Made by a program: the position numbers and the translations under genes. From assembly GCA_041648975.1 (NCBI GenBank), contig JBAZNZ010000006.1, positions 5,723 through 69,722 on the forward strand: DNA of 64,000 bases, read 5' to 3'. Positions 3,474 to 63,037 of the stretch are shown here, in pieces. The stretch comes from Candidatus Omnitrophota bacterium (lineage in GTDB: Bacteria > Omnitrophota > Gorgyraeia > 2-01-FULL-45-10). Numbering within the stretch: position 1 is the stretch's first letter; every line of letters begins with the position of its first letter. Below the pieces are notes generated by a model, which was given only the letters and a program-made list of their open reading frames with translations, had not been told where the DNA came from and searched no databases.

Positions 3474-4337
3474 ATGCAGCAGATAAAAGACGCGCTGACG
3501 AAGTTCCCTAAAAGGGCGACGGATGCGCATAAGGGTGACTTCGGCCACGTCCTTGTCATGGCGGGATCGTGCGGATATACCGGTGCTGCGTATCTCGCGA
3601 GCCAGGCCTCAGCGCTTTCGGGCAGCGGACTCGTGACCCTTGCGATAGCGAAAAGCCTGTACGGTGTGCTAGCGTCAAAATTGACGGAGGTAATGGTCCG
3701 TCCGTTCATCGAGACTAAAGACGGTTCCCTAAGTCTCCTGGCCGAAAAAGACCTTGTCGGCTTTGCGCATAAATGTAATTCTATCGCGATCGGCCCTGGA
3801 CTGTCGCAGAATAAGGAGACGCAGCGGCTTGTAAGGAATCTACTGGAAAAACTCGACAAGCCGGTTGTACTTGACGCGGACGGTATTAACGCATTTGTAG
3901 GATGCCTGGATGCCCTGAAAAATTCGAAGCGACCGCTTGTAATGACACCTCATCCGGGAGAGTTGGCGAGGCTGATAGGGAAAGAGGCGGAAGAGATTCA
4001 GAAGGATAGAAAAAATATTGCTTTAAGCTTTGCTAATGAGTATAATACGGTCTTAGTTTTAAAGGGGCACAACACTGTCATTGCAGAACCGGGCGGCGAA
4101 TATTATGTGAATGAGACCGGCAACGTTGGGATGGCTTCCGGCGGCACAGGCGATGTGTTGACAGGAATAATAGCTAGCTTCATAGGACAGGGGCTAGATC
4201 CTTTTACAGCCGCTGTGTTGGGCGTATATTTTCACGGCCTGGCCGGCGATGAGGCGGCTAAAGAGAAGGGCCAACTCAGCCTGCTCGCTACGGATATATT
4301 AAATAAGTTGCCGGAAGTTTTGACGGTGCTGGGGTAG
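3474..4337 (+). CDS. nnrD: ADP-dependent NAD(P)H-hydrate dehydratase (YjeF C-terminal domain, carbohydrate-kinase fold)
   Basis: HKGDFGHVLVMAGSCGYTGAAYLAS, TPHPGELARL and GGTGDVLTGIIAS are YjeF_C motifs. The TAG stop overlaps the downstream tRNA. Confidence 0.75.
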   Translation: MQQIKDALTKFPKRATDAHKGDFGHVLVMAGSCGYTGAAYLASQASALSGSGLVTLAIAKSLYGVLASKLTEVMVRPFIETKDGSLSLLAEKDLVGFAHKCNSIAIGPGLSQNKETQRLVRNLLEKLDKPVVLDADGINAFVGCLDALKNSKRPLVMTPHPGELARLIGKEAEEIQKDRKNIALSFANEYNTVLVLKGHNTVIAEPGGEYYVNETGNVGMASGGTGDVLTGIIASFIGQGLDPFTAAVLGVYFHGLAGDEAAKEKGQLSLLATDILNKLPEVLTVLG

Positions 4338-4403
4338 CTCAATTGGCAGAGCACCGCATTTGTAATGCGGACGTTGAAGGTTCAATTCCTTTCCCCAGCT
4401 CCA
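4328..4403 (+). tRNA. tRNA-Thr (anticodon TGT)
   Basis: 76-nt cloverleaf. Acceptor gctgggg/ccccagc, D arm gctc-aattggca-gagc, anticodon stem ccgca/tgcgg with loop tttgtaa (anticodon TGT, A37), T arm gaagg-ttcaatt-ccttt, encoded CCA. Confidence 0.8.
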
Positions 4404-4653
4404 AGTTATTTAAGTCGAAATAGTACAGATAGGAATTGAAGCGAATACAATAAATATTTATATAAATGCGAAAATTAAATAAATATAAAATCAAATCATT
4501 GTATTGGAATAAGGATTATACAGCTATACGCATTCACGCGTTAATCTAAAGAAGGCAAGAATATACTGGCATAAAATAACAGGAGTGCCGCTTGCTCAAT
4601 TTACTAAGCCATATGTACGAAAAGGAAATCCGAATCTAAGCAATAGAAAATTG

Positions 4654-4682
4654 CTTTACGGGCTTGTCCATATTCGCTATAA
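4654..4682 (+). promoter_or_regulatory. putative sigma70-type promoter for tRNA-Tyr (TTTACG-17-TATAAT)
   Basis: A perfect -10 TATAAT at 4677-4682, with a weak -35 TTTACG 17 nt upstream, lies about 60 nt before the tRNA-Tyr 5' end. Confidence 0.3.
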
Positions 4683-4743
4683 TGACAAAAAGCTGTTGGA
4701 AACGATACATAATTGGATTGATATATATGTAGATCAGTTTAGT

Positions 4744-5039
4744 GGTGAGGTACCATAGCGGCCAAATGGACCAGACTGTGGTGAACGCAGCGTCATGAAG
4801 AAATTCATGATGGAAAAGCGGGTGAATTCAGGGGAGCCCTTAATAGCGAAACATTAAGGGGAATCCTGAGCCAAGCCTAGAACCGTAATGGTTCTTTGAA
4901 GGTGCAGAGACTAAGCGCCCGCCGCCTAAAGTTCGCAAGAACCAAGGTGATGAGATAGTCCAAGCCTCGAGGTAACTTGAGGGCCCTTGAAATCTGGCGG
5001 CGCAAGCCTTCGATGGTTCGAATCCATCCCTCACCACCA
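4744..5039 (+). tRNA. tRNA-Tyr (anticodon GTA), type II, interrupted by a 210-nt group I intron in the anticodon loop (exons 4744..4779 and 4990..5039)
   Basis: Exon 1 is ggtgagg-ta-ccat-AGCGGCCAAA-tgg-a-ccaga-ctgt. The D loop AGCGGCCAAA matches E. coli tRNA-Tyr. Exon 2 is aaa-tctgg-cggcgcaagccttc (long variable arm, GGC/GCC stem)-gatgg-ttcgaat-ccatc-cctcacc-a-cca. The spliced anticodon loop CUGUAAA is the tRNA-Tyr loop, and the acceptor stem is perfectly paired. Confidence 0.8.
4780..4989 (+). ncRNA. group I self-splicing intron (IC3-like, ORF-less) inside tRNA-Tyr
   Basis: Core elements are recognisable. P-like GAATTCAGGGGAGCC, Q-like GGAATCCTGAGCCAAGCC, R-like GGTGCAGAGACTAAG, S-like GATGAGATAGTCCAAG. 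These match the cyanobacterial/plastid tRNA-Leu(UAA) intron core. The 5' splice site follows U, the intron ends in G, and there is no internal ORF. Confidence 0.7.
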
Positions 5040-5184
5040 ACTTAACAGATTTATTGCATAAGTTCTATAGTGTCAGTGAGTTATGCGACCTGGAGATTTT
5101 AGACTTTAACAAAAAGCCATTAAAATTGGTTCCGGTAAAAATATTTTCTGTCTAATATGGAAAGAGGTCTACAACGAATTAACT

Positions 5185-5264
5185 CTTGAAAATTATAGAT
5201 TCAGAAAAAGGATCTGTATGTAAATGAGACAAAGCGCTGGCTGGTATGGCCAGCGCTTTTAATT
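5185..5264 (+). repeat. about 80-nt intergenic module, copy 1 (roughly 75% identical to 6070..6147), ending in a terminator-like hairpin
   Basis: CTTGAAAATTATAGATTCAGAAAAAGGATCTGTATGTAAATGAGACAAAGCGCTGGCTGGTATGGCCAGCGCTTTT aligns with the second copy. Confidence 0.5.
5233..5264 (+). terminator. rho-independent terminator-like hairpin (AGCGCTGGC-TGGTAT-GCCAGCGCT followed by TTTTAATTT)
   Basis: Perfect 9-bp GC-rich stem followed by a T-rich tract. Lies downstream of tRNA-Tyr. Confidence 0.4.
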
Positions 5265-5279
5265 TGGGGGTAATGAGGT

Positions 5280-5528
5280 ATGAATGCTGACGATTATATA
5301 GGGAAAGGCTCGGAACATATAGCAAAGGCTATTGCAGGGGTTGCGAAAGAGCCTCCGTCATGGCAACAATTATTACTTCAGGAGTATTTGAAGGTGGAAT
5401 TAAACAGAGAACTAATAGAGAGCCAAAGGAAGCATCAGGACGATTCAATTAAGCAGATGAAGCACCTTGTTTATGCAACGTGGGGATTAGTCGTGGCAAC
5501 GTTGTTATTGGTGCTAATAAAGCATTAA
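5280..5528 (+). CDS. hypothetical small protein with C-terminal TM anchor (82 aa)
   Basis: ORF with C-terminal hydrophobic helix WGLVVATLLLVLI. No recognisable motif. Confidence 0.35.
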   Translation: MNADDYIGKGSEHIAKAIAGVAKEPPSWQQLLLQEYLKVELNRELIESQRKHQDDSIKQMKHLVYATWGLVVATLLLVLIKH

Positions 5529-5539
5529 AAGGAGAGGCT

Positions 5540-5932
5540 ATGGGATATTTGATAGGTTTTTATCATAACGCGTGGGGATTGGTTCCATTTGCTTTAGTGG
5601 CATCTTTAGTGTTGTTTTTATTCAGAAGGTGTGGCTTCATCAAATATTTCTCTGTTTTATGGTTGGTTCTAATTGGATACGAATATTCACAAGTCTATGG
5701 TGGGAATGTCTATGGAGCTATGATACAGAGTGGAATGGCAAGGACTTATTCTAAAGTGGTGGGTTATCTTGTGGGGTATCTGTATTTTTCTATCGTTGCT
5801 TCTGTTCCATTTATTTTTATGGATGTAATAAAGAGTAAACTAGCTAAAAAACTATATCTTTTGATGTTCGTTATATTTATGTGGGTAACGCCATTTATAT
5901 GTGAATTTATCGGAGATATTGCGAAAAGATAA
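5540..5932 (+). CDS. hypothetical integral membrane protein (about 4 TM, 130 aa)
   Basis: ATG at 5540 is preceded by AAGGAGAGG. Four hydrophobic segments. The longer 5480 start overlaps the previous ORF. Confidence 0.45.
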   Translation: MGYLIGFYHNAWGLVPFALVASLVLFLFRRCGFIKYFSVLWLVLIGYEYSQVYGGNVYGAMIQSGMARTYSKVVGYLVGYLYFSIVASVPFIFMDVIKSKLAKKLYLLMFVIFMWVTPFICEFIGDIAKR

Positions 5933-6069
5933 GTAGGTAGTAGAGAATGAGGAATTATGGGACGCGTCAAAAAAGGACACGCAGTTTGAGTGGAATGCCC
6001 CCAAAGTGACACGTCCCTAATAGCTGCCTTTGCTGCGCAATGCAGAAAGAGGTGTGAAACGAACAAAAA

Positions 6070-6147
6070 CTTGAAGATTTTAGATATAGAAAACGGATCC
6101 GTGTAAATTGGGAGAAGCGCTGGCTATTGTATAGTCTGCGCTTTTTT
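6070..6147 (+). repeat. about 80-nt intergenic module, copy 2 (paralogue of 5185..5264), ending in a terminator-like hairpin
   Basis: CTTGAAGATTTTAGATATAGAAAACGGATCCGTGTAAATTGGGAGAAGCGCTGGCTATTGTATAGTCTGCGCTTTTTT. Confidence 0.5.
6116..6147 (+). terminator. rho-independent terminator (AGCGC...GCGCT followed by TTTTTT) after the 5540..5932 gene
   Basis: Stem agcgc/gcgct with an internal loop, followed by six T. Confidence 0.45.
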
Positions 6148-6182
6148 GCTTGAACGCGTATTTTGTGAGTCATGGCAAGGAG

Positions 6183-6611
6183 ATGGTAATTATGATGAAA
6201 ATTTTAGCGTATATATTCTTCGCATATCTTTACATATCAGTTGGCGTATTTATTTACTTCTTGATTCGTGATAAACGAGGGAAAGTGCCTTATAATCCTA
6301 ATAACCTAAATGGCTTGTCAGCGATTTTTTCGCTTGGAACACTTATTATGCTTTGGTTAATTTTAAGCATAGGCATAGAAAAGTTTTTACTTGCACCCAT
6401 ACCTTATTCTTGGGGGTGGCACGAAGGAGAAGGAGTTAAGAATTCATTAAGATTCAATTTAGCTTGGATGATTGCTCTTGCAATATCAGTTTATATATTT
6501 TGGATTATAGGAGAGCTTCAAAGGAAAGAAAAGGTTATAAAAGAGTTGCAAGCTCGGTATCAAAAATTAAAGGGGACAGATAAAGGGGAGTGCAAAAATG
6601 GGCATGGCTAA
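6183..6611 (+). CDS. hypothetical membrane protein (3 TM, C-terminal coiled-coil/K-rich tail)
   Basis: ATG at 6183 follows AAGGAG. Hydrophobic helices ILAYIFFAYLYISVGVFIYFLI, LSAIFSLGTLIMLWLILSIGI and LAWMIALAISVYIFWIIG. Overlaps the next gene. Confidence 0.45.
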   Translation: MVIMMKILAYIFFAYLYISVGVFIYFLIRDKRGKVPYNPNNLNGLSAIFSLGTLIMLWLILSIGIEKFLLAPIPYSWGWHEGEGVKNSLRFNLAWMIALAISVYIFWIIGELQRKEKVIKELQARYQKLKGTDKGECKNGHG

Positions 6612-7143
6612 TCTTTCAGACATAAAATCAGAGCCGATTCTTCTCAAAGATAAGGAGTGGAGCTTGATTGATGGCGAGCTTTGTCTTGTAACGGAATTTT
6701 TCCCAATGATGGGGAGTAGCGTTAAGGATGGGGTTGTAATATCGCCCAGCACCTCCGCCCCTTACGCAAAAATTACTATTAGATGTAAAAAAATACCCAC
6801 TGAAATAACCGCCTTTATAACACATTCCATTGACTTTGCTAACCTTTGGGATGCCTTTAGGTATAGAGAAACACATAATAAGACCGATGAGATACTTATT
6901 TATTGGTCAACGAAGCATTATAATAGTGTCATTGCAAAGATAATATCCTCGGTTATGCTAACTATCCTCGGTGGCACGTCTCTGCCGAAAATCCTTATTA
7001 TGCTTCGTCCTAACGGTGCTTATGAAAAAAGCGGGAGTGATTCAAGATTGCCCCACGATATAAATGCAAATGTTTTTATATATGGCTCATTACCTATTAA
7101 GTGTTGGATACCTGATATTATGAATGAGGCAGTTAAACATTAA
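6598..7143 (+). CDS. hypothetical soluble protein (181 aa)
   Basis: The start overlaps the upstream gene end, suggesting translational coupling. No known motif recognised. Confidence 0.45.
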   Translation: MGMANLSDIKSEPILLKDKEWSLIDGELCLVTEFFPMMGSSVKDGVVISPSTSAPYAKITIRCKKIPTEITAFITHSIDFANLWDAFRYRETHNKTDEILIYWSTKHYNSVIAKIISSVMLTILGGTSLPKILIMLRPNGAYEKSGSDSRLPHDINANVFIYGSLPIKCWIPDIMNEAVKH

Positions 7144-7166
7144 AAGCTAAATAGAGAGGTGCGAAA

Positions 7167-7532
7167 ATGTCAGAGCAAAATCCTGCAACAATAATAAAAA
7201 ACGCAGTAGAAGACCTTGCGGGGAAAATAATATTTTTATCAGGCGAAGTAGCAACTTTTAAGCAAGCTCTGTGCGACCTCGTAATCAAGGCGAATGATTC
7301 GAGCAATAAAATGCTTAAGGCTTCAAAGATGTATTTTGCAGGAAGTATTATTCTGTCAGCAGTTATAGCCTTTAGTGCGTTAGTTCCTAAGTGGGGTTTT
7401 GTATCCACTCAAGGCGGTTATACATTAAAGTATAATCAGGTTACAGGGAAAGCTGTTGTGTATAAATGTAATTATTCAACCGAAGGGAAGTATGTATACC
7501 AAGAATTCCCTGTCGAAAAATATAAGCCTTAA
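7167..7532 (+). CDS. hypothetical protein with one central TM helix (121 aa)
   Basis: Follows the previous ORF after 23 nt. Central helix is AGSIILSAVIAFSALV. Third gene of an apparent operon. Confidence 0.4.
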   Translation: MSEQNPATIIKNAVEDLAGKIIFLSGEVATFKQALCDLVIKANDSSNKMLKASKMYFAGSIILSAVIAFSALVPKWGFVSTQGGYTLKYNQVTGKAVVYKCNYSTEGKYVYQEFPVEKYKP

Positions 7533-7640
7533 GATTTCGTTGTTAAAGAAATAAATGAACAATCAAGCCATAGCATATTGCGGATGCTTTACCGATATGC
7601 AGGAAATGTTGATTCTTGACAGCATACCTTTTTAGGTGTC

Positions 7641-7681
7641 TTGACACTACAGGTGTAATATGCTACACTTATCGGTGTAAT
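7641..7681 (+). promoter_or_regulatory. sigma70 promoter (TTGACA-17-TACACT) with flanking GGTGTAAT direct repeats (putative operator)
   Basis: Consensus -35 TTGACA at 7641-7646 and -10 TACACT at 7664-7669. GGTGTAAT occurs at 7652-7659 and again at 7674-7681, straddling the -10 element. The site lies just upstream of the wHTH-nucleotidyltransferase gene. Confidence 0.45.
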
Positions 7682-7694
7682 GTGAGGAACGCAT

Positions 7695-8240
7695 ATGATC
7701 CCGCTTAAATCGACAATAACTAAAAAGATACTAAATTACTTTTTTGTCAATCCACAAGAAAGCTTATATGTAAATGAGCTGTCCCGGAAGCTATTTCTGG
7801 ATAAAAGGAACCTGGTAAAAAAGATCAAGGAGCTAGAGGCTGAAGGGATATTGGTTCATGAGACGAGAGGCAACCTTAAGTTATATGCTATAAATGCTAG
7901 CTATCCTTTATATAAAGAATTTCGTAAAATTATCATGACAACGGTAGGAGTCGAGGAACAACTGAGGCATCTTTTAAAAGGAGTTACTGGAGTTAAAGAA
8001 GCGTATATTTATGGCTCATATGCGAAAAATGCTATGGATACTCATAGCGATATCGACGTTCTTATTGTAGGTAGTGTAGGTGTTGTAACCGTACAAAAGC
8101 ACATAAGCAAGCTACAGAGAGAAATAGATAGGGAGATAAGCGTTACTGTTATGACCAAAAAGGACTTTACCCGGCGCGTAAAGGCAAAAGATCCCTTTAT
8201 TAGTGGTGTGCTCAAACAAAAGCACATAAAGATAATATGA
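7695..8240 (+). CDS. winged-HTH DNA-binding domain fused to a minimal nucleotidyltransferase (MNT/Pol-beta fold), MntA/AbiEii-like
   Basis: The N-terminus (ILNYFFVNPQESLYVNELSRKLFLDKRNLVKKIKELEAEGIL) looks like an ArsR/MarR-type wHTH. The C-terminus carries the NTase motif GSYAKNAMDTHSDIDVLIVG. Confidence 0.65.
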   Translation: MIPLKSTITKKILNYFFVNPQESLYVNELSRKLFLDKRNLVKKIKELEAEGILVHETRGNLKLYAINASYPLYKEFRKIIMTTVGVEEQLRHLLKGVTGVKEAYIYGSYAKNAMDTHSDIDVLIVGSVGVVTVQKHISKLQREIDREISVTVMTKKDFTRRVKAKDPFISGVLKQKHIKII

Positions 8241-8644
8241 TGAAATTCGAAGATAAATATTTCAAAGATTTTGTATTTACAAAGGATCAGGTCAAAAAGA
8301 ATTTCGATAATGCCTTAAAAGATATTAAGATTGCGCGTCAAGATGCCATCCCGGATGTCAAATTCACATACTCTTATGATGCACTTATTAAAGGTGGTAT
8401 TGCTTTGATAAGCAGCTACAACAAAAAAGTCAAAAGTGCGCCAGGGCATCATGTGAAGATTATAGAGATGGTTGCGAAAATATTAAATGACGACACAATT
8501 GAAGCTGTGGGCGGCGCTATGCGCTCAAAGCGCAATGTGGATTTCTACGATGGCGGGGTGGAGGTTACCGAAAAAGAGGCGTGCGAATATTTGGGTTTCG
8601 TAGACAGTATTTTGAAAAAAATTGAAAAAGCCTTAAATATCTGA
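8237..8644 (+). CDS. hypothetical protein, putative partner of the upstream nucleotidyltransferase (possible toxin or antitoxin)
   Basis: ATGA overlap with the NTase gene suggests a coupled two-gene module. No canonical HEPN Rx4-6H motif was seen, so its family is undetermined. Confidence 0.4.
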   Translation: MMKFEDKYFKDFVFTKDQVKKNFDNALKDIKIARQDAIPDVKFTYSYDALIKGGIALISSYNKKVKSAPGHHVKIIEMVAKILNDDTIEAVGGAMRSKRNVDFYDGGVEVTEKEACEYLGFVDSILKKIEKALNI

Positions 8645-8657
8645 TAATATGCTTGCG

Positions 8658-8705
8658 GGTGAGGAAGTTTCTATATGTTAAGTTCGAGGCGAACCCTCAC
8701 CACCA
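8658..8705 (+). repeat. tRNA-Tyr-derived acceptor/T-arm-like fragment (GGTGAGG...GTTCGAGGCGAACCCTCACCACCA), putative att remnant
   Basis: Its 5' GGTGAGG and 3' CCCTCACC-ACCA reproduce the tRNA-Tyr acceptor stem, and it ends in a T-arm-like CGAAC. It is homologous to 11459..11503. Confidence 0.5.
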
Positions 8706-8884
8706 GTAATATCTACTCAGTTCGACTGAGTATTATAATACCCGCGTTGAAGATGGATTCGCAAAAAGGGTTTTTAAGGGAAAAAAGAATTTTTTCCCTT
8801 ATCGGCGCACGAGAACATCTATGCGGAAGAAAGGATAACATTAAAAGGAAAACATCAGGTTTTCCTTTTAAGGAGCCCATAGCC

Positions 8885-8916
8885 TAAGTTCAGGGCGACG
8901 AATCCGTCCCTCACAA
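8885..8916 (+). repeat. degenerate copy of the tRNA-Tyr 3' end (CGAATCCGTCCCTCAC against tRNA CGAATCCATCCCTCAC)
   Basis: One mismatch over 16 nt to the tRNA-Tyr T-arm/acceptor region. The upstream CCCATAGCC resembles the tRNA-Tyr D-arm CCATAGCGG. Confidence 0.4.
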
Positions 8917-9015
8917 TAGTTAAATGAGTGTGCTATGTGATAATTTTAGACCTAATAATACCCGTAAATTAGCATCCGCAGTTGTGGGGTGCTAATTTTA
9001 TTTTAAGGGGGTAAT

Positions 9016-9609
9016 GTGGAAGAAAAAAATCTAAACGAGACAATTAAAGAAGCGGTTACTGCAGAAAGCCGTAAAGACAGTTGGTTAGAAACGCTTGGCA
9101 TATCATGGGAAGATGTTATTAAGGCACTTGAACAATCGGAGAAAGATGAGAAATATTTAACGGAATTAGCTAAAAAAACAGCATCTAATAAATCGAGACA
9201 CTTTATAGTTGTGCGCAGTATAGTATTAGACATTCATTTGCTTTTGGATTATACCGTAAGCTCTGTCATTGGGTTTATGCTTGTCTTTCGGGGTGGACAT
9301 CATGGAAAGGAATATAATGGGCAAGAGGTTCAGGAAATTATAGATTTTATACATGACAAGGTTGACTATGCAAAGAGGGTGCATATCATAGAGAGGCTGA
9401 AGATATTTAGCAAAGACGCTATCAAAATATTATATGCAGTTAATAATCTTCGAGTTGCTTTTGCTCACGGTAAAAAGAACGTAGAGTACAATTACTTCAA
9501 TAAATCGGTATTTGATAAGAATACTATTGATAGACTACAGGCAGATAAAAACAAGGTATTGGGAGAATACTCGGAGTTTCTGAAGAATAGCACAGATAAG
9601 AAAACATAA
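9016..9609 (+). CDS. hypothetical protein with C-terminal Rx4H motif (possible HEPN/Abi-like)
   Basis: GTG start follows AGGGGG by 6 nt. The C-terminal LRVAFAHG matches the HEPN catalytic Rx4-6H pattern. Confidence 0.4.
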   Translation: MEEKNLNETIKEAVTAESRKDSWLETLGISWEDVIKALEQSEKDEKYLTELAKKTASNKSRHFIVVRSIVLDIHLLLDYTVSSVIGFMLVFRGGHHGKEYNGQEVQEIIDFIHDKVDYAKRVHIIERLKIFSKDAIKILYAVNNLRVAFAHGKKNVEYNYFNKSVFDKNTIDRLQADKNKVLGEYSEFLKNSTDKKT

Positions 9610-9618
9610 GGAGAAGTA

Positions 9619-9646
9619 AGTAGCTGACGTTTAAACGTCAACTACT
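9619..9646. repeat. near-perfect 28-nt palindrome centred on GTTTAAAC
   Basis: AGTAGCTGACGTTTAAACGTCAACTACT has one mismatch. It lies just after the 9016..9609 stop codon. It may be a terminator (no T-tract) or a protein-binding site. Confidence 0.3.
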
Positions 9647-9688
9647 TTGTGGGTAACTAGAGTATTGGGATGAATTAAGAATAAAATA

Positions 9689-10228
9689 ATGAAAATTAAG
9701 ATTAGTAAAATTCAAGCCGCAGAAGCGCAGCTAAATGAAGCTATCTTTTTATTTTTTGATGAGGCTAATCCTGTAGTTATTGAAACATTGATAGGGGCTG
9801 TTATAGGTATATTGCGACCTATAGGTAAAAAATATGGCATTCAAGCCCCTTCCCATGATTCGGATAAAATAAAGCCAGAATATAAGAAGCTATGGATAGA
9901 CACTCTTCATAAAGCTCAGAATTTTTTTAAACACGCTGATAATGATTCAGATGATATTTTATCTTACGAAAATGATATATTGCCTTTTTGCATTGTTGAA
10001 GCATGTCATTTGTTCAGATATGTCGCATCCGATAAATGCTTGAAATATCGACAGTCTCAGCCTGCCCTACTGTTTGAAATATGGTTTTGGCTGAAATATC
10101 CCCATTTATTAAAAGACTTAGCTGAGACTGAGAAATTCTTGCAGGCTGTAGGTATGCCAAAAAGTTTTAGTGTTGATGATTTCGAAGTGCTGAAAATGTT
10201 GGCAGATAAGTATCGGATAAAATTATAG
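9689..10228 (+). CDS. hypothetical protein (179 aa)
   Basis: ORF with its ATG following GGGATGAATTAAGAATAAAATA. No recognised motif. Confidence 0.4.
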   Translation: MKIKISKIQAAEAQLNEAIFLFFDEANPVVIETLIGAVIGILRPIGKKYGIQAPSHDSDKIKPEYKKLWIDTLHKAQNFFKHADNDSDDILSYENDILPFCIVEACHLFRYVASDKCLKYRQSQPALLFEIWFWLKYPHLLKDLAETEKFLQAVGMPKSFSVDDFEVLKMLADKYRIKL

Positions 10229-10238
10229 TTTTCTATAA

Positions 10239-10847
10239 GTGGGGGGCATGATGGATACGATATTTTTTATTTCTATAGGTGTGGTTGGCATCATTAGTGT
10301 GCTCGTAGGATTTTTGCCGCAAGAAAAATTAAGCAGGCATCTTAAAATATTATTTCTTGTAATCACGGCAGCGTGTCTTATGTTTCAAGGGTTTTACGGG
10401 TTAAAAGAGAAGAGATCCTCGGATTATAAAAAATACAGAGATGACTTGTACCAAAACGATATGCTAACGGGGCAAAGTGAGATTTCGGATGGTATGAAGG
10501 AACTGAAAGAAAAAAGTAAAAAAGGTGTTTTAACAGAGGCCGAATATGGACTGTATATTTCCAATTATTTAGAAAGCATAGATCTTAGCTTAAAGCGCTT
10601 GGGTTGGAAACATAATAGAGAGCGGATCATTGATTATTATGAAGAAATTGCTAAGATTCCAGATTATTTTACTTTTCAAGAATGGAGTGCTGCCGAGGCA
10701 TTTATATATAACTCGATGATGGATGAGATCAACAATAATTTCAGTGCTAGAAATATGTACGATAGTAGCGCAAGAACAAAAGTGCTGGAGAGTTTTGAGC
10801 GCGAACGCGGAAGGCTAATTACAGCAAAAGAAAGAGAGTTTAGTTAA
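10239..10847 (+). CDS. hypothetical membrane protein with SHOCT-like motif
   Basis: Two N-terminal TM helices. KELKEKSKKGVLTEAEYGLYISNYL resembles the SHOCT oligomerisation motif (G-[LIV]-[LI]-T-x-E-E-Y). Confidence 0.4.
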   Translation: MGGMMDTIFFISIGVVGIISVLVGFLPQEKLSRHLKILFLVITAACLMFQGFYGLKEKRSSDYKKYRDDLYQNDMLTGQSEISDGMKELKEKSKKGVLTEAEYGLYISNYLESIDLSLKRLGWKHNRERIIDYYEEIAKIPDYFTFQEWSAAEAFIYNSMMDEINNNFSARNMYDSSARTKVLESFERERGRLITAKEREFS

Positions 10848-10921
10848 AACAAGGGAATGAGAAGGGTGGCTCTATTAAATGTTAGATATGTTTGTTCCCG
10901 TAAAATATATTTACAATTATA

Positions 10922-10950
10922 TTGACAAAAATATGTATATCGAGTATACT
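10922..10950 (+). promoter_or_regulatory. sigma70 promoter (TTGACA-17-TATACT) for brnT-brnA, overlapping palindrome GTATATCGAGTATAC
   Basis: Consensus -35 with a near-consensus -10 ending 5 nt before the ATG, implying a leaderless or short-leader mRNA. The palindrome over the -10 is consistent with an autorepressor operator. Confidence 0.4.
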
Positions 10951-10955
10951 TAATT

Positions 10956-11237
10956 ATGCTCGAAGAACATAACAGTTTTGTGTGGGATCCGAGGAAAGAA
11001 AGAATAAATGTAATAAAGCACCGGATCGATTTTACTACGGCAGCCTATGCATTCGACGATCCTAAAAGAAAGATATTTGCCGACCTTTGGCATAGTGAGC
11101 ACGAACAAAGATATTTTTGTATAGGAAGGATAAATAATAAGATAGTAACCGTGCGCTTTACTCGTAGGGGTAACAAGATTAGGATAATTGGCGCGGGTTA
11201 CTGGAGAAAGGGGAGAAAATACTATGAAAAAGCATAA
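10956..11237 (+). CDS. brnT: BrnT-like type II toxin (DUF497 ribonuclease)
   Basis: FVWDPRKERINVIKHRIDFTTAAYAFDDP...IIGAGYWR matches the BrnT/DUF497 signature (F-x-WD-x-x-K-x-x-x-N-x-x-KHG-[IV]-x-F). Confidence 0.7.
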   Translation: MLEEHNSFVWDPRKERINVIKHRIDFTTAAYAFDDPKRKIFADLWHSEHEQRYFCIGRINNKIVTVRFTRRGNKIRIIGAGYWRKGRKYYEKA

Positions 11238-11454
11238 AATCGATTACGATATGCCTATAGGTGAACTAAAAAGAATAGACGACTTTTTACCGCCTCCCAA
11301 GGACCTGGCTATGCCGGAACATACCGTTATGGTTACTTTGAGGCTTAGCGAGAAGAGTGTTGAATTCTTCAAAGATCAGGCTAAAAAGTATCATACCAAG
11401 TACCAGAAGATGCTTAGATTTTTGGTGGATAAGTACGCGGAGAAGTATTCATAA
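11224..11454 (+). CDS. brnA: BrnA-like antitoxin (RHH/CopG family)
   Basis: Begins at MKKHKIDYDMPIGELKRIDDF and overlaps the brnT 3' end. Size and position match the BrnA antitoxin. The upstream extension of the ORF from 11188 is unlikely to be translated. Confidence 0.6.
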   Translation: MKKHKIDYDMPIGELKRIDDFLPPPKDLAMPEHTVMVTLRLSEKSVEFFKDQAKKYHTKYQKMLRFLVDKYAEKYS

Positions 11455-11458
11455 AAAG

Positions 11459-11503
11459 TGAGGGAATTCTATCTGTTAAGTCCAGATCGAACCCTCACCA
11501 CCA
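11459..11503 (+). repeat. tRNA-Tyr-derived acceptor/T-arm-like fragment, right-end att-like repeat (GTGAGGG...GATCGAACCCTCACCACCA + TTTTTT)
   Basis: About 80% identical to 8658..8705. Ends in CCCTCACC-ACCA as tRNA-Tyr does. The AT-rich island ends here. Confidence 0.5.
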
Positions 11504-11686
11504 TTTTTTGCATGTAGACTTCGTCAGGGCAAAAAATGATCCCGAGTAACTATAATTAGACTGAGGCTATGAGGGACTTCCTTTAAATGGACGCCATCCC
11601 GGGCAATAAATTTCATAAGAGAAAAACACTGTTTTTCGTCTCTTCACGAGCCTTACTTTCCTATATTTGTGAAGGGTTATTTTTTC

Positions 11687-11714
11687 TTGCATCCATGCCG
11701 AGATATAGTACAAT
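11687..11714 (+). promoter_or_regulatory. putative promoter (TTGCAT-16-TACAAT) for the sensor kinase operon
   Basis: Sequence match about 160 nt upstream of the kinase start. Confidence 0.3.
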
Positions 11715-11812
11715 ATCAGCATAGTCACTTGCGAGGGATGCTTTGGAAACTAAGAACGACGCTAGAAGCAATCAGTCGTCAAAGCGCTATAGTTGCCGGT
11801 TTGTCTAATTTG

Positions 11813-11860
11813 AACCCAGGAGTATTGTGCGGGAAAGCACAAGGCCCTGGGTTTTATTTT
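11813..11860 (+). promoter_or_regulatory. terminator-like hairpin plus U-tract in the 5' leader of the sensor kinase (possible attenuator or riboswitch expression platform)
   Basis: AACCCAGG-AGTATTGTGCGGGAAAGCACAAGG-CCCTGGGTT followed by TTTATTTTT. It ends 15 nt before the ATG at 11876. Confidence 0.35.
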
Positions 11861-11875
11861 TGCGAGGGCTAAAAA

Positions 11876-22048: not shown

Positions 22049-23253
22049 TAAGGGTGATCTCGATCGCGTTCCTCATGTGCTTCGCGATCAGCGAATGCGC
22101 CTTCGCCACGCTTAAAGATGATGTGAAAAAAGGCAATTTATTATATAATGATAAAAAATATTCCGAAGCGGCCAAGATATATTCCGCGGCGTTGAAAGAA
22201 AAACGCGATTCCGGGGTTGTGAATTTCAATATCGGGGCCGCGAAGTACAAGGAGGGGTCATATTCCGGTTCGATAGATTCTTTCAATAAAGCGATAGCTT
22301 CAGGTGACGCTGGATTGGTGCCAAAGGCAGATTACAATATCGGAAACGTCCAGTACAAGATAGGGACAACAAAACAGAAGAGCGATTTCAATAAGACTAA
22401 AGAACTGTACGAGACAGCGCTTAAATTTTATAAGCGCGCTATAGACCTGGATCCGTCCGACAAAGACGCGAAATATAATTATGAGTTCGTTGAGAACAGG
22501 CTCATGCAGCTGATGGAGCAGAAAAACCAGGAGCAGGAGAAAAAACAGGATCAGAAACAGGATAAGGACCAGAAGAAGCAGGACAAAGAGCAGCAGAAGG
22601 ATCAGCAGAAAAACCAGGATAAACAGCAACAGGATAAGCAGGAACAGCAGAAGGATCAGCAAAAAGGGTCTCAGCCCCAGGATGCCGGCGGCGGGGGAAG
22701 TCAGGAAAAAGAGGAAACTGGGAAGCAGGAAGAGCAGCAGAAAGAAGGGAAATCCAGCTCCGAACAAGATAAAGGTGACCAGAAGGACCAGGATCAAAAG
22801 CAGGGCGAGGACGAGAAGAACGCCGCTGACAACAAAAAAGAGGGCGAAGAGTCTGATCAGCAGAAGAAAGAAGGCGGCGAGCAGGAGGAAAATCCGAAGG
22901 AGCAGGACGGCGATAAGGAAGAACAGCAGAAGCAGGAAGGCGAGAAGGAGAATAAGCAGCAGCCCGGGGATCAGGAAAAGGATAAGGGCGGCACGGGAGA
23001 AGAAGAGCAGGAGCAGCCGAAGCCATCTGAAGAAGGAAAGGAAGAAGAGACAGCCGGTATTTCAAAAGAGGACGAGGAAGGCGGAGGATTGACAGCATAT
23101 CAGTCACCGCAGGAGCAGGGAGAGCCTGGTGAGATGTCGGAACAGGAAGCTAAGATGATACTCGAAGGATATAAAGGGGAAGAGGCTACCGGCGGCGCGA
23201 TAAAGATGATGAAGAAAAGGGTGAACCTTCCGGAGCCGTCCAGAGATTGGTAA
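22045..23253 (+). CDS. batC: BatC-like TPR protein with a long K/Q/E/D-rich low-complexity region
   Basis: N-terminal TPR-like helices (YNIGNVQYKIG, YETALKFYKRAIDLDP), followed by about 250 aa of QEQEKKQDQK-type repeats. Confidence 0.6.
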   Translation: MIRVISIAFLMCFAISECAFATLKDDVKKGNLLYNDKKYSEAAKIYSAALKEKRDSGVVNFNIGAAKYKEGSYSGSIDSFNKAIASGDAGLVPKADYNIGNVQYKIGTTKQKSDFNKTKELYETALKFYKRAIDLDPSDKDAKYNYEFVENRLMQLMEQKNQEQEKKQDQKQDKDQKKQDKEQQKDQQKNQDKQQQDKQEQQKDQQKGSQPQDAGGGGSQEKEETGKQEEQQKEGKSSSEQDKGDQKDQDQKQGEDEKNAADNKKEGEESDQQKKEGGEQEENPKEQDGDKEEQQKQEGEKENKQQPGDQEKDKGGTGEEEQEQPKPSEEGKEEETAGISKEDEEGGGLTAYQSPQEQGEPGEMSEQEAKMILEGYKGEEATGGAIKMMKKRVNLPEPSRDW

Positions 23254-25094
23254 ATAAGGTGTGTATGAAAAAACGCATTTATATATTTATAGTTTTAGCC
23301 ATTACGATCTGTTCGCTGGCGTCCTTATTATATGCAGAGGACGGAAGATTCGAAGTAAGCCTTGACCGCCGGCAGGTAGCCCTCGGCGAGTCCGCGCAAC
23401 TGGGGCTCTCCTTCCGCGGGACCCAGAGCATGCCTGCGCCCGACATAGGGAATATCAGCGGACTCGAGATACGGTATCTAGGGCCGTCGACCATGATGAC
23501 CGTCATCAACGGCCAGGTATCCACCGCCATAACGCACATGTATACCGTCCTACCCTTGAAGATAGGGACTTTTCAGTTGGGGCCGTTCTCTTTCAAATAT
23601 AAAGGAGACAATTACGTATCAAATACGGTGACGCTGGAGGCTACGGCTGAGAAAGTGATCGCGGCAAAGAGCGTCGAAGAGTCATCCGCGGATAATATTG
23701 AACTGGGCGACAGGATATTCGTAAAGCTTGAGATCAGCAAGGCCTCGGCTTATGTAAACGAACTTATTCCGGTAAAAGTGAAATTTTATGTGAACAGGCT
23801 CAATGTGAGCGATATCCAGTTGCCGACCTTTGCCCAGGAAGGGTTTTCAAAGATAGAGTTCAAGGAACCGAAACAATACAGGGAGCGTATGGGAGGATTG
23901 TTATACGACGTCCTCGAGTTCAATACGAATATATTTGGGACCAAGAGCGGCGACTACTCGCTCGGCCCCGCAAAGATCAAGTGCAATGTGATTGCCAGAA
24001 AGAGGCTGGCCAGGATGCCGTCTATGATGGATGATTACGACAGTTCACCCTATAGGGATTCGTTTGACGATTTCTTTACCCGGTATGAAAAGCATCCCAT
24101 GGAGCTGAAATCCCAGGAAACCAGGATAACGATAGAGCCCATCCCTGCCGAAGGCAGGCCTAAAGACTATCTCGGCGCTGTCGGCGATTATCAGTTCATA
24201 TACAGCGCCAATCCTAAGAAAGTAAAAGTGGGTGATCCTTTGACGGTCACTATGGTCATTAACGGCACAGGCAACTTCAATACGGTGCTTTCGCCCAGGA
24301 TAGATAATACCGAAGGTTTTAAGGTCTACGATCCGCAGGTCAAGACCGAAGAGAATAGGAAGACCTTTTCCCAGGTCCTCATCCCAACTACCGACATGAT
24401 CACACAGATACCTAAAGCTGTCTTCAGTTATTTTGACCCGGCGCAGAAGATGTACAAGGTGATAACTCAGGATCCGATCCCGCTGCAGGTGGAGAAGGGC
24501 ATTGAAGAGTCGCCGTCCCAGGTGATAGGCGCGGCATCCGTGCCTGAGCGGAGGACTGAGGAAAAAGAAGATCTGGCCAGAGACATCATATATATAAAGG
24601 AATCTCCGGGCGCATGGCTGCCTAAAAATTACCAGATATACAGGAGTAATCTATTTATTGTCCTTACAATTGTACCAATTGTGTTATTGATATCTCTTTA
24701 TGTAACCAATGCGCGCAGGAACAGGATCAGATACGACACGGAATACGCCGCGCGCCTGGCTTCTTTCCGGTATGCCAAAAGAAGTGTGAGGGAGTTGAAA
24801 CGACACTTAAAACCGGAAGACCCTAGGATATTTTACGAGACCCTGTTCAAGACGCTTCAGGGGTATCTCGGGAACCGTTTCTACATCGCTCCGGCAGGAA
24901 CAACATATAGTGAGATAGAACGGATCGCCCTGGAGAAGGGCGTAGACCGCGATATCATCCAGAAGATAAAGAAATTGTTCGATGCCTGCGATGAGATGAG
25001 ATTCGCTTTCTCGAAGACGGATATCTATAAGATGCAGGATAACGTAAAGGATGTGGCGGAGATCATAAGATACCTGGAGCGCAGAAAATTATGA
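23247..25094 (+). CDS. batD: BatD-like oxygen-tolerance protein
   Basis: Size of 615 aa, N-terminal signal peptide, a C-terminal TM helix (LFIVLTIVPIVLLISLYV) followed by a cytoplasmic tail, and operon position all match BatD. Confidence 0.65.
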   Translation: MVNKVCMKKRIYIFIVLAITICSLASLLYAEDGRFEVSLDRRQVALGESAQLGLSFRGTQSMPAPDIGNISGLEIRYLGPSTMMTVINGQVSTAITHMYTVLPLKIGTFQLGPFSFKYKGDNYVSNTVTLEATAEKVIAAKSVEESSADNIELGDRIFVKLEISKASAYVNELIPVKVKFYVNRLNVSDIQLPTFAQEGFSKIEFKEPKQYRERMGGLLYDVLEFNTNIFGTKSGDYSLGPAKIKCNVIARKRLARMPSMMDDYDSSPYRDSFDDFFTRYEKHPMELKSQETRITIEPIPAEGRPKDYLGAVGDYQFIYSANPKKVKVGDPLTVTMVINGTGNFNTVLSPRIDNTEGFKVYDPQVKTEENRKTFSQVLIPTTDMITQIPKAVFSYFDPAQKMYKVITQDPIPLQVEKGIEESPSQVIGAASVPERRTEEKEDLARDIIYIKESPGAWLPKNYQIYRSNLFIVLTIVPIVLLISLYVTNARRNRIRYDTEYAARLASFRYAKRSVRELKRHLKPEDPRIFYETLFKTLQGYLGNRFYIAPAGTTYSEIERIALEKGVDRDIIQKIKKLFDACDEMRFAFSKTDIYKMQDNVKDVAEIIRYLERRKL

Positions 25095-26157: not shown

Positions 26158-27354
26158 ATGGCAAAGGAAGCGTTTGTAAGATCTAAGCCGCACGTGAACA
26201 TCGGCACAATCGGCCATATCGATCACGGCAAGACTACTTTGACGGCAGCAATTTTAGCGACCCTTGCCAAAAAGGGCAAGGCGCAGGTTAAGTCCTACGC
26301 CGATATCGCCAAGGGCGGCACCGTCAGGGATGAAACCAAGACCGTTACTATCGCCGTAGCGCACGTTGAATACGAGACCGAGAAGAGGCATTACGCCCAT
26401 ATAGACTGCCCCGGACACGCCGATTACATCAAGAATATGATAACCGGAGCCGCGCAGATGGACGGAGCCATACTTGTGGTATCGGCAGTGGACGGCCCGA
26501 TGCCCCAGACAAGAGAGCATATCCTCCTGGCCCGCCAGGTCAATGTCCCTTCAATAGTCGTATTCCTCAATAAAGTAGACCTTGTGGAAGACAAGGAACT
26601 CGTGGACCTGGTCGAGCTGGAAGTGAGGGAGCTTCTCACCAAGTACCAGTTCCCCGGAGACAAGACCCCCGTGATAAGGGGCAGCGCATTAAAAGCGATG
26701 TCGGCGCCCGATAACCCGGAATCCACAAAGAGCATATTCGAGCTCATGGAAGCATGCGATACGTTCATCCCCGAGCCCAAGAGGGACATAGATAAACCCT
26801 TCCTCATGCCCATAGAAGACGTCTTCTCGATAACAGGCCGCGGCACAGTAGGAACAGGCCGGGTCGAGAGAGGCCAGATAAAGGTGGGCGAGGAGATCGA
26901 GATAGTAGGCATACGCCCCACAAAGAAGTCCGTAGTCACGGGCGTTGAGATGTTCAGGAAGCTGCTCGATTCAGGACAAGCCGGAGACAACATCGGCGTC
27001 CTGTTAAGGGGTATCGAGAAGACAGACCTCGAGAGGGGGCAGGTCCTGGCAAAGCCGGGTTCCATCACCCCTCACACCAAGTTCAAGGCAGAGGTATATA
27101 TATTGAGCAAAGAAGAAGGAGGCCGTCACACGCCCTTCTTTAACGGTTACCGCCCGCAGTTCTACTTCAGGACCACAGACGTCACGGGAGTAGTAACCCT
27201 CCCCAAAGAGGTCGAGATGGTCATGCCCGGCGATAACGTAAGCTTCGAAGTAGTTCTGATAACCCCGATAGCCATGGAAAAAGAGTTGAGGTTCGCCATA
27301 CGTGAAGGCGGACATACTGTTGGCGCAGGGGTCGTAACCGAAGTCATAGAATAG
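26158..27354 (+). CDS. tuf: elongation factor Tu (copy 1)
   Basis: [26 protein letters not shown]. Predicted protein and nested-ORF pattern identical to the copy at 41715..42911. Confidence 0.95.
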
Positions 27355-41714: not shown

Positions 41715-42911
41715 ATGGCAAAGGAAGCGTTTGTAAGATCTAAGCCGCACGTGAACATCGGCACAATCGGCCATATCGATCACGGCAAGACTACTTTGAC
41801 GGCAGCAATTTTAGCGACCCTTGCCAAAAAGGGCAAGGCGCAGGTTAAGTCCTACGCCGATATCGCCAAGGGCGGCACCGTCAGGGATGAAACCAAGACC
41901 GTTACTATCGCCGTAGCGCACGTTGAATACGAGACCGAGAAGAGGCATTACGCCCATATAGACTGCCCCGGACACGCCGATTACATCAAGAATATGATAA
42001 CCGGAGCCGCGCAGATGGACGGAGCCATACTTGTGGTATCGGCAGTGGACGGCCCGATGCCCCAGACAAGAGAGCATATCCTCCTGGCCCGCCAGGTCAA
42101 TGTCCCTTCAATAGTCGTATTCCTCAATAAAGTAGACCTTGTGGAAGACAAGGAACTCGTGGACCTGGTCGAGCTGGAAGTGAGGGAGCTTCTCACCAAG
42201 TACCAGTTCCCCGGAGACAAGACCCCCGTGATAAGGGGCAGCGCATTAAAAGCGATGTCGGCGCCCGATAACCCGGAATCCACAAAGAGCATATTCGAGC
42301 TCATGGAAGCATGCGATACGTTCATCCCCGAGCCCAAGAGGGACATAGATAAACCCTTCCTCATGCCCATAGAAGACGTCTTCTCGATAACAGGCCGCGG
42401 CACAGTAGGAACAGGCCGGGTCGAGAGAGGCCAGATAAAGGTGGGCGAGGAGATCGAGATAGTAGGCATACGCCCCACAAAGAAGTCCGTAGTCACGGGC
42501 GTTGAGATGTTCAGGAAGCTGCTCGATTCAGGACAAGCCGGAGACAACATCGGCGTCCTGTTAAGGGGTATCGAGAAGACAGACCTCGAGAGGGGGCAGG
42601 TCCTGGCAAAGCCGGGTTCCATCACCCCTCACACCAAGTTCAAGGCAGAGGTATATATATTGAGCAAAGAAGAAGGAGGCCGTCACACGCCCTTCTTTAA
42701 CGGTTACCGCCCGCAGTTCTACTTCAGGACCACAGACGTCACGGGAGTAGTAACCCTCCCCAAAGAGGTCGAGATGGTCATGCCCGGCGATAACGTAAGC
42801 TTCGAAGTAGTTCTGATAACCCCGATAGCCATGGAAAAAGAGTTGAGGTTCGCCATACGTGAAGGCGGACATACTGTTGGCGCAGGGGTCGTAACCGAAG
42901 TCATAGAATAG
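41715..42911 (+). CDS. tuf: elongation factor Tu (copy 2, same predicted protein as copy 1)
   Basis: Same 398-aa protein and same nested-ORF pattern as 26158..27354. Canonical str-operon position after fusA. Confidence 0.95.
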
Positions 42912-46255: not shown

Positions 46256-46771
46256 ATGGTGACAAAAGCAGTAGCTAGATATATAAGGATAAGTCCGAGG
46301 AAGTTCAGGCTCATAATCCCTCTTGTAAAAGGGAAGAATCCCGAGGCGGCGATAGCGATACTGATGAACGTAAAGAAGGGCGCGTGCGTTTACGCTATCG
46401 AATTGCTCAAATCCGCTATTGCTAACGCAAAACGGAAACAGGGTGTTGACGTCTCAAACCTCTATATATCCAGGTTCTTTGCCGACTGCGGCCCTACGCT
46501 GAAACGGTTCAGGGCGGCCTCTATGGGCAGGGCGAGCACTATAAGAAAGAGGACTTCGCATATTACGGTAGAGTTGGACGAGTTTACAAACAAGAAAGAA
46601 AATAAGCGCGTCGAAGCGGCGCATGCCGGAACCAGGGCCCATAAAGAAGACGCTCAATACGCCGTTAAAGCAAAAGAGAAAGATAAGGCTAAGGATGCGG
46701 CAGCGCACGCAAAGCCGCATAAAGCCAGAGAGACTAAAAAGGCCGAATCGGGCAAAAAAGGTAAGGAGTAA
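46256..46771 (+). CDS. rplV: 50S ribosomal protein L22 with a roughly 55-aa basic C-terminal extension
   Basis: L22 core then K/A/E-rich tail. Confidence 0.9.
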
Positions 46772-46772
46772 G

Positions 46773-47447
46773 ATGGGACAAAAGGTTCATCCATACGGGT
46801 TCAGGGTAGGGTACATATACGACTGGAAATCTCGGTGGTAGTCGACAAGGCAGGAATTCGCTAAGCTCCTGATAGAAGATGTTAAAATACGGAAATACAT
46901 AAAGAAGGTATTGTCCGCCGCCGCCGTTTCCAAGATAGAGATCGAAAGGGCGAGCGATAAGATAAGGATCATGATATTTTCGGCCAGGCCGGGCATAATA
47001 ATCGGCAGGCGCGGATCCGAGATAGAGAAATTGAAAGAGACGCTCCATTCGATAGCCGGCAGAGAGGTCCTGATAGATATTAAAGACATCAAGAACCCTA
47101 ATGTAGACGCCCAGCTTGTGTCGGAGAACATAGCGTTCCAGATAGAGAAGCGCATACCGCACAAACGCGCCATGAAGAAATCCATACAGAATGCGCTTGA
47201 TAGCGGAGCTAAAGGCGTCAAGATCCTGTGCTCCGGGAGGCTCGGCGGCGCCGAGATCGCGCGCAGAGAGAGTTATCGCGTCGGATCAATACCCGCGCAG
47301 ACGCTGAGAGCGGATGTGGATTACGGATTTTCCGAGGCTGTAACTACCTACGGGTTGATCGGCGTTAAGGTATGGATATATAAAGGCGACAGGGTGCTTG
47401 ATAAGAAGGTTGAAGATACGACAGTAGAAGAGAAGAAACAGCTATAA
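46773..47447 (+). CDS. rpsC: 30S ribosomal protein S3, reading frame interrupted by an in-frame TAG at codon 23 (46839..46841)
   Basis: Translates [89 protein letters not shown].... This is colinear with S3 across the stop, with no frame change. The TAG sits where Tyr/Phe is conserved (W-[YF]-A). Confidence 0.8.
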
Positions 47448-47465: not shown

Positions 47466-47885
47466 ATGGGTTTAATGCCAAAGAGAGTAAAATTCAGGAA
47501 GAGCCAGAGGGGCAGGCGCTTTGGAACATCATGGAGGGGCGCAACCCTCTCTTTCGGCGAATTCGGTCTGAAGGCCCTAGAAAATGCCTATTTTTCCGAC
47601 AGGCAGATAGAAGCGGCAAGGGTCGCGTTCATGAGGAGCCTCAAGGGCGGCGGAAAGATATGGATCAGGGTATTCCCGGATAAATCCATAACGAAGAAAC
47701 CGGCGGAGACCAGGATGGGTAAAGGTAAAGGCATCCCGGACCACTGGGTAGCCGTCATAAAGAAAGGCAAGATACTGTTCGAGATGGACGGCGTGCCGCT
47801 TGAGATAGCTAAAGAATCTATGCGTGTAGCGGCGCATAAGATACCTTTCCGGACAAAGTTTATCACGAGAGGGATTGCGCACTAA
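47466..47885 (+). CDS. rplP: 50S ribosomal protein L16
   Basis: Conserved L16. Confidence 0.93.
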
Positions 47886-61956: not shown

Positions 61957-63037
61957 ATATAAGATAACATTGATACCCGGCGACGGCACGGGGCCTGAAC
62001 TTGCTCTTGCGGCCAGGCGGTGTGTGGATGCTCTCGGCCTTAATATAGAGTGGGAGGTCATGGAGGCCGGAGAATGTGCGTTGGAAAAATATAAGACGCC
62101 TCTTCCGGATAACGTGCTCGAATCGATCAAACGCAATAAGATCGCTTTGAAAGGGCCTATTACTACACCCATAGGTACGGGATTCAGAAGCGTTAACGTA
62201 GAGCTGAGGAAGAGGCTCGATCTCTATGCCTGCCTCAGGCCCTGCAAGAGCTATACCGGTGTACGGAGCCGTTATGAAAACATGGACCTCGTGGTGGTCA
62301 GGGAGAATACTGAGGATCTTTACGCAGGCATAGAGTTCGAAAAAGGGGCTGCGGAAACAAGAGAGCTTATATCTTTGCTGGAAAAAATGAGCAAGAAGAA
62401 GATACGGCCCGATTCAGCGATAAGCATTAAACCCATATCGGTTGAAGGTTCGCGCAGGATAGTCAAATACGCTTTCGAATACGCCGTAAAGAACAACCGC
62501 AAGAAAGTGACGGCTGTCCATAAGGCCAATATCATGAAGTATACTGACGGACTTTTTCTCGAAGTTGCCCGCGATGTGGCTAAATCATATTCCGGTAAGA
62601 TAATATTCGAAGATAGGATAGTCGACAATATGTGTATGCAGCTTGTGCAGAAACCTGAGGATTACGATGTCCTGGTCCTGCCGAACCTTTACGGCGATAT
62701 ACTGTCTGACCTGTGCGCAGGCCTGGTAGGCGGACTTGGCGTAGCGCCGGGAGCGAACATAGGCGACGGACTCGCCGTATTCGAGCCTACGCACGGCAGC
62801 GCGCCGAAGTATAAAGGCATGGATAAGGTAAATCCGGCGGCAATCATACTTTCCTGCGTAATGATGTTAAAATATATGGGCGAAGACGCGCAGGCGGATA
62901 GGTTGGAAAAGGCCATTTCCGCGGTCATAAAAGAAGGCAAAGACGTGACTTATGACCTTAAAAAAGACAGGAAAGACCCTTCGGCTGTAGGGACCAGCCG
63001 CATGGCCGACGCTATAATCGGCAAACTGAAACGATAA
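61949..63037 (+). CDS. isocitrate/isopropylmalate dehydrogenase family protein (NAD(P)-dependent beta-decarboxylating dehydrogenase)
   Basis: [13 protein letters not shown] and [14 protein letters not shown] start at 61949 overlapping the leuD-like stop by 8 nt is preferred to the ATG at 61901. Confidence 0.8.

Follow-up and report, generated by a model that had tools for sequence, protein, structure and literature searches.

Stop codons inside otherwise coding sequence are known from several settings. In draft genomes and MAGs, consensus or assembly errors create internal stops that turn intact genes into apparent 'pseudogenes'. In supF-type suppression, a mutant tRNA-Tyr with a CUA anticodon inserts Tyr at UAG; in pyrrolysine and selenocysteine recoding, an in-frame stop lies inside a functional reading frame; and in some phages and eukaryotes, UAG has been reassigned across the whole code. 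Here, we examine an in-frame TAG at codon 23 of rpsC, the gene encoding ribosomal protein uS3 (S3), in a 64,000-nucleotide stretch of DNA from an uncultured member of the Omnitrophota (hereafter, the window). uS3 is essential, and if translation of the sole rpsC seen ended at codon 23, this ribosomal protein would be lost. We confirmed the observation of the TAG, but a genuine biological feature is most likely not what it represents.

Results

The rpsC frame runs from 46773 to 47447 on the + strand and comprises 224 codons followed by TAA, but in the window it is broken by a TAG at codon 23 (46839-46841, +). The gene is housed on the + strand in a str/S10/spc/alpha ribosomal gene cluster of typical bacterial form, with rplV (46256-46771) on one side and rplP (47466-47885) on the other, and it has the placement expected in an S10 operon, as the gene order S19-L22-S3-L16-L29-S17 in the sibling DNA is collinear with the window. 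Reading the sequence directly, we placed the true start at the ATG at 46773, preceded by the Shine-Dalgarno motif AAGGAG (46763-46768, +). Beyond the TAG, the same frame continues unbroken as full-length uS3 to the TAA at 47445-47447, which bears out the first-pass annotation, made from the letters of the window, in its claim of an in-frame stop within a genuine rpsC. Upon substituting Tyr for the stop, we obtained a product that scored 292.3 bits over residues 1-207 against the NCBIfam equivalog TIGR01009 (rpsC_bact; curated cutoff, 114.5 bits), and that could be aligned, from its first residue on, with bacterial uS3 chains of solved structure (best E = 3e-73), which have Tyr at position 23. 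The list of open reading frames was, as had also been remarked, limited to 46911-47447 (+), from a TTG start. This 178-aa frame is spurious, and it is the form in which S3 appears in a public protein collection (JGI/IMG record P0123, on a 79,438-nt contig). Since the public collection holds the truncated 178-aa protein, the TAG belongs to the deposited assembly and did not arise when the window was extracted. A tblastn search revealed no second copy of rpsC in the 64-kb window.

To find sibling DNA, we looked for proteins identical to the flanking L22 and L16 or to other proteins of the window, which led us to three other assemblies of the same species. Of the 64-kb window, ~60.9 kb was covered by contigs of ERZ27247363 (ENA), and a total of 7 mismatches was seen, of which those at 23528, 24788, 24803, 24809, and 34728 are synonymous third-position differences. 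The only non-synonymous differences between the window and ERZ27247363 across ~61 kb are a pair in rpsC, 5 bp apart. At 46841, the window has G where ERZ27247363 has T, so that TAT becomes TAG (Tyr23 to stop), and at 46846 the window has C where ERZ27247363 has A, so that AAA becomes ACA (Lys25 to Thr; codon 25, 46845-46847, +). The first-pass annotation was thus right about the stop but overlooked the linked AAA-to-ACA change 5 bp downstream. In Logan SRR8542065, the 2.9-kb rpsC contig reads TAT...AAA, with 46841 and 46846 as its sole differences from the window, and a 4.2-kb contig at the window start is identical to the window. The MAG GCA_028715235.1 is a more distant sibling, with 13 mismatches in 4.5 kb (99.7% identity); it too has TAT...AAA, and its deposited protein MDD5423068.1 has W-Y-S-K. 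The rpsC frame is intact in both same-strain assemblies (ERZ27247363 and Logan SRR8542065), and in the third sibling, where a contig edge ends the gene and leaves it partial, the frame is open through codon 188. A comparison with sibling genomes, which the first-pass annotation had suggested as a check, hence returned TAT at codon 23 in three of three assemblies.

These assemblies can be told apart. At 23528, Logan shares the base of ERZ27247363, but at 24788, 24803, and 24809 it has that of the window, and this mosaic shows that the siblings do not all go back to one and the same assembly. Because the more distant GCA_028715235.1 likewise carries TAT...AAA, the Tyr23/Lys25 combination is ancestral. 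Judged from these sequences, the species state is Tyr23/Lys25, and the TAG/ACA pair of the window is private and derived. The variant is missing from all three independent sibling assemblies, as is expected of an artefact. Exact-pattern scans of genome and metagenome contig collections retrieved neither the TAG nor the TAT version, and our literature search found no mention of SRR8542065, ERZ27247363, or JAQUSE. Separately from rpsC, the synonymous SNPs that form a mosaic among the three near-identical assemblies, at 23528 and 24788-24809, lie in a BatD-like gene (23247-25094), and their pattern indicates either coexisting or recombining haplotypes in the population or chimeric consensus paths.

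In the wider lineage, the nearest S3 proteins all come from Omnitrophota MAGs and are all full length, with identities of up to 88%. Phe occupies position 23 in 110 of the 120 nearest homologues and Tyr in the remaining 10, in agreement with the earlier expectation of a Tyr or Phe at this site; while the residue class was correctly called, it had gone unremarked that the nearest relatives mostly carry Phe (TTY) and that this species uses TAT. Position 25 in the same 120 proteins is Lys in 74, Asn in 34, Arg in 4, Ser in 3, Asp in 3, and Gly in 2, and as Thr occurs in none of them, both of the linked changes are damaging. Since an interrupted gene would be missing from protein databases, we read codon 23 from the DNA of 160 related rpsC loci, of which species-representative genomes and metagenome contigs supplied 80 each. 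The codon was TTC in 75 loci, TTT in 37, TAC in 28, TAT in 18, and ATC in 2; TAG was found in none of the 160, and no stop occurred anywhere in the alignments. A stop at codon 23 was accordingly conserved nowhere, neither among the 160 related loci nor among the 3 same-species assemblies. Given the TAT of the siblings and the lack of any stop in the 160 loci, site-specific recoding is removed as a feature of the lineage, and the TAG characterises neither the species nor the lineage. We found no relevant literature on stop-codon recoding in Omnitrophota.

The two substitutions have an unusual form. The 46841 T>G and 46846 A>C changes are the outer bases of a hexamer (46841-46846) that reads TTCGAA in all three sibling assemblies and GTCGAC in the window, so that one palindrome, identical on both strands, is replaced by another, the SalI recognition site. 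The change is symmetric, with T>G on each strand when read 5' to 3', and both private changes are A:T>C:G transversions; by our own count, 22 further differences separate the window from its siblings, with 16 being transitions and only 3 belonging to the A:T>C:G class. The pair of changes in rpsC is anomalous. A motif-linked systematic error at TTCGAA, for example a methylation-related miscall, was rejected as an effect acting across the window: the hexamer is unaltered at 23 other sites in the window, and no motif-wide systematic error therefore accounts for the change. Counts of TTCGAA, GTCGAC, and the half-converted hexamers in the window were all near the Markov expectation. Templating by a nearby repeat or quasi-palindrome was rejected as well, as the lone other copy of a 10-mer across the site (at 62619) shares 10-11 bases, which is at chance level, and a 20-mer spanning the site had no other match in the window at up to 3 mismatches. 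For Illumina data, A>C has been described as one of the commonest miscalls, with G/T and A/C being read with the same lasers (PMC2532726), and T as the base most often miscalled and G as the one preferentially misincorporated, with substitution errors that cluster (PMC4787001). The T>G and A>C changes are consistent with these classic same-laser miscall types, which makes them compatible with error but is not proof of it. On the sequence comparison, two linked damaging changes fit noise and not a selected feature.

TAG serves as a regular terminator in the window, where it ends 13 of 78 non-overlapping + strand ORFs. Upon direct check of nine genes, we could confirm the earlier statement that it is a genuine terminator here, ending both tuf copies, rplK, acpS, nnrD, map, infA, and rplQ. 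Only one large gene in the window, rpsC, is split by a single in-frame stop. Reassignment of the UAG codon hence fails as an explanation, with 13 of 78 ORFs ending in TAG and no gene besides rpsC split, and we agree with the first-pass annotation that wholesale reassignment is unlikely; its description of the sequence proved correct in each detail that we checked. The two tuf (EF-Tu) copies, at 26158-27354 and 41715-42911, are themselves identical at all 1197 bases, and the sibling short-read assemblies break at these repeats.

We also looked for signals that could rescue the stop. ARAGORN and Rfam searches of the 64-kb window and of the scanned sibling DNA turned up no tRNA whose anticodon is CUA. 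The RNA from 46836 to 46935 (100 nt from the Trp22 codon) showed no unusual structure, with z = +1.18 and 184 of 200 shuffles folding at least as well. The bases flanking the TAG are identical to those flanking TAT in the siblings, and no dedicated signal has thus evolved at the TAG.

Apart from rpsC, the window encodes a well-formed tRNA-Tyr(GTA) at 4744-5039 (+), with a long variable arm and an encoded CCA, whose anticodon is split by a 210-nt group I intron at ~4780-4989 (actGT-intron-Aaatc). The intron matches Rfam RF00028 at 4768-4982 (86.4 bits, E = 1.2e-20). The intron-bearing tRNA-Tyr was missed by ARAGORN in its default mode, and its sequence is identical in ERZ27247363. Bacterial tRNA group I introns are known from tRNA-Leu(UAA), fMet, Ile2(CAU), and Arg(CCU), and in view of these hosts, tRNA-Tyr may be an unusual one. 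A low-GC island at ~4400-11870 (0.37-0.41, versus ~0.50 elsewhere) directly follows a tRNA-Thr(tgt) at 4328-4403 and contains many small ORFs without Pfam match, an NTP_transf_2 gene with its partner (7695-8644), and, at 10956-11454, a toxin-antitoxin pair of the BrnT/BrnA type. The assembly graph of the sibling is interrupted at 5016-5131, and one sibling contig starts with 593 nt that do not match the window, which together suggests a variable junction.

Discussion

We infer a technical cause for the TAG, which is probably a sequencing or assembly artefact of one assembly. The organism's rpsC would then be ordinary and intact, encoding Trp22-Tyr23-Ser24-Lys25, and the TAG would be half of a private two-base difference (46841 T>G, 46846 A>C) found in a single assembly. 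The pair most likely entered during sequencing, error correction, or assembly, for example where coverage was thin and a single faulty read, or a handful of them, set the consensus, and no recoding, suppression, or readthrough would be involved. Against an artefact speaks that two errors reaching the consensus at normal coverage would be unusual, and that the population contains real segregating SNPs, so that assembly of a real minor haplotype is conceivable. Of the three options that the first-pass annotation had laid out, the TAT codons of the siblings favour an error, site-specific recoding drops out as a lineage feature, and a private nonsense allele is retained as a tentative alternative. 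Such an allele would be a real but non-representative, defective form of rpsC, produced by one multi-nucleotide event and carried on a haplotype that was by chance followed during assembly. It would be a dead or dying variant without dedicated rescue, having arisen in a single lineage or subpopulation of the community sampled. We regard this as the main rival to an artefact, though clearly the less likely of the two. The mosaic of synonymous SNPs in the three closest assemblies implies that several haplotypes coexist, two changes 5 bp apart would form one assembly-graph bubble and be co-inherited, and natural mutations are known to include clustered multi-nucleotide events. Loss of uS3 should, however, be lethal, and cells that suffered it should not dominate an assembly path. 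Furthermore, both changes belong to the rarest natural class here (3 of the 22 remaining differences), the exact symmetry within the palindrome would have to be coincidental (for a second hit within 10 bp, we estimate ~1 in 60), and the variant is found in no other assembly, with the exact-pattern scans of the collections being empty for either version.

A TAG that is real and rescued, with full-length S3 being made by means of an amber-suppressor tRNA (e.g., tRNA-Tyr with a CUA anticodon) or near-cognate readthrough, seems very unlikely to us. While it would account for the intact frame, Shine-Dalgarno motif, and downstream codons, and while the tRNA scan spanned only part of the genome (the window plus sibling DNA), no CUA-anticodon tRNA appeared in that DNA, and the tRNA-Tyr at 4744-5039 has a normal GTA anticodon. 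An efficient suppressor would also be costly, as TAG ends 13 of the 78 ORFs, including the highly expressed tuf, rplK, and infA. The 100 nt from the Trp22 codon lack unusual structure (z = +1.18), the flanks identical to those of the TAT siblings indicate that no dedicated signal evolved, and rescue would leave the linked K25T change unexplained. Similarly improbable is that this strain lives with a UAG in its sole rpsC by virtue of a strain-specific amber suppressor or efficient readthrough that inserts Tyr or a near-cognate residue. As to site-specific recoding (pyrrolysine-like or other) or UAG reassignment at the level of this Omnitrophota group, to which we assign a negligible probability, the presence of the TAG is all that speaks for it. 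None of the 160 related rpsC loci has TAG or any other in-frame stop, the same-species siblings have TAT, and conserved genes that close with TAG do so at the usual C-terminus; the TAT siblings and the 160 stop-free loci effectively refute it.

A TAG that was both real and rescued would constitute a rare natural case of an essential ribosomal gene that depends on amber suppression, in an uncultured member of the Omnitrophota. With an artefact as the preferred explanation, the practical value of the analysis is curatorial, in that the public 178-aa S3 should be a 224-aa protein with Tyr23 and Lys25. More generally, in-frame stops in core genes of MAGs call for a check of sibling assemblies before recoding is proposed.

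Compared with the known systems, the rpsC stop resembles whole-code UAG reassignment in that a TAG lies within coding sequence, but it is one such TAG in 64 kb, in DNA where TAG terminates 13 of 78 ORFs. With pyrrolysine and selenocysteine recoding it shares an in-frame stop inside a functional reading frame, but the stop is unconserved, is followed by no downstream structure, and occupies an ordinary Phe/Tyr position. The likeness to supF-type suppression is closer at the level of the codon, as the UAG stands where the wild type has Tyr and insertion of Tyr would restore the exact protein; here, however, no CUA tRNA was found, the tRNA-Tyr carries GTA, and TAG is a widely used terminator. The internal-stop errors of draft genomes and MAGs differ from the present case in one respect, namely that rpsC carries two linked substitutions placed symmetrically in a 6-bp palindrome. 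In the other respects they are alike: a single essential and otherwise perfectly conserved gene is broken, the interruption is missing in other assemblies of the same strain, and the substitution types would match miscalls known from the Illumina platform.
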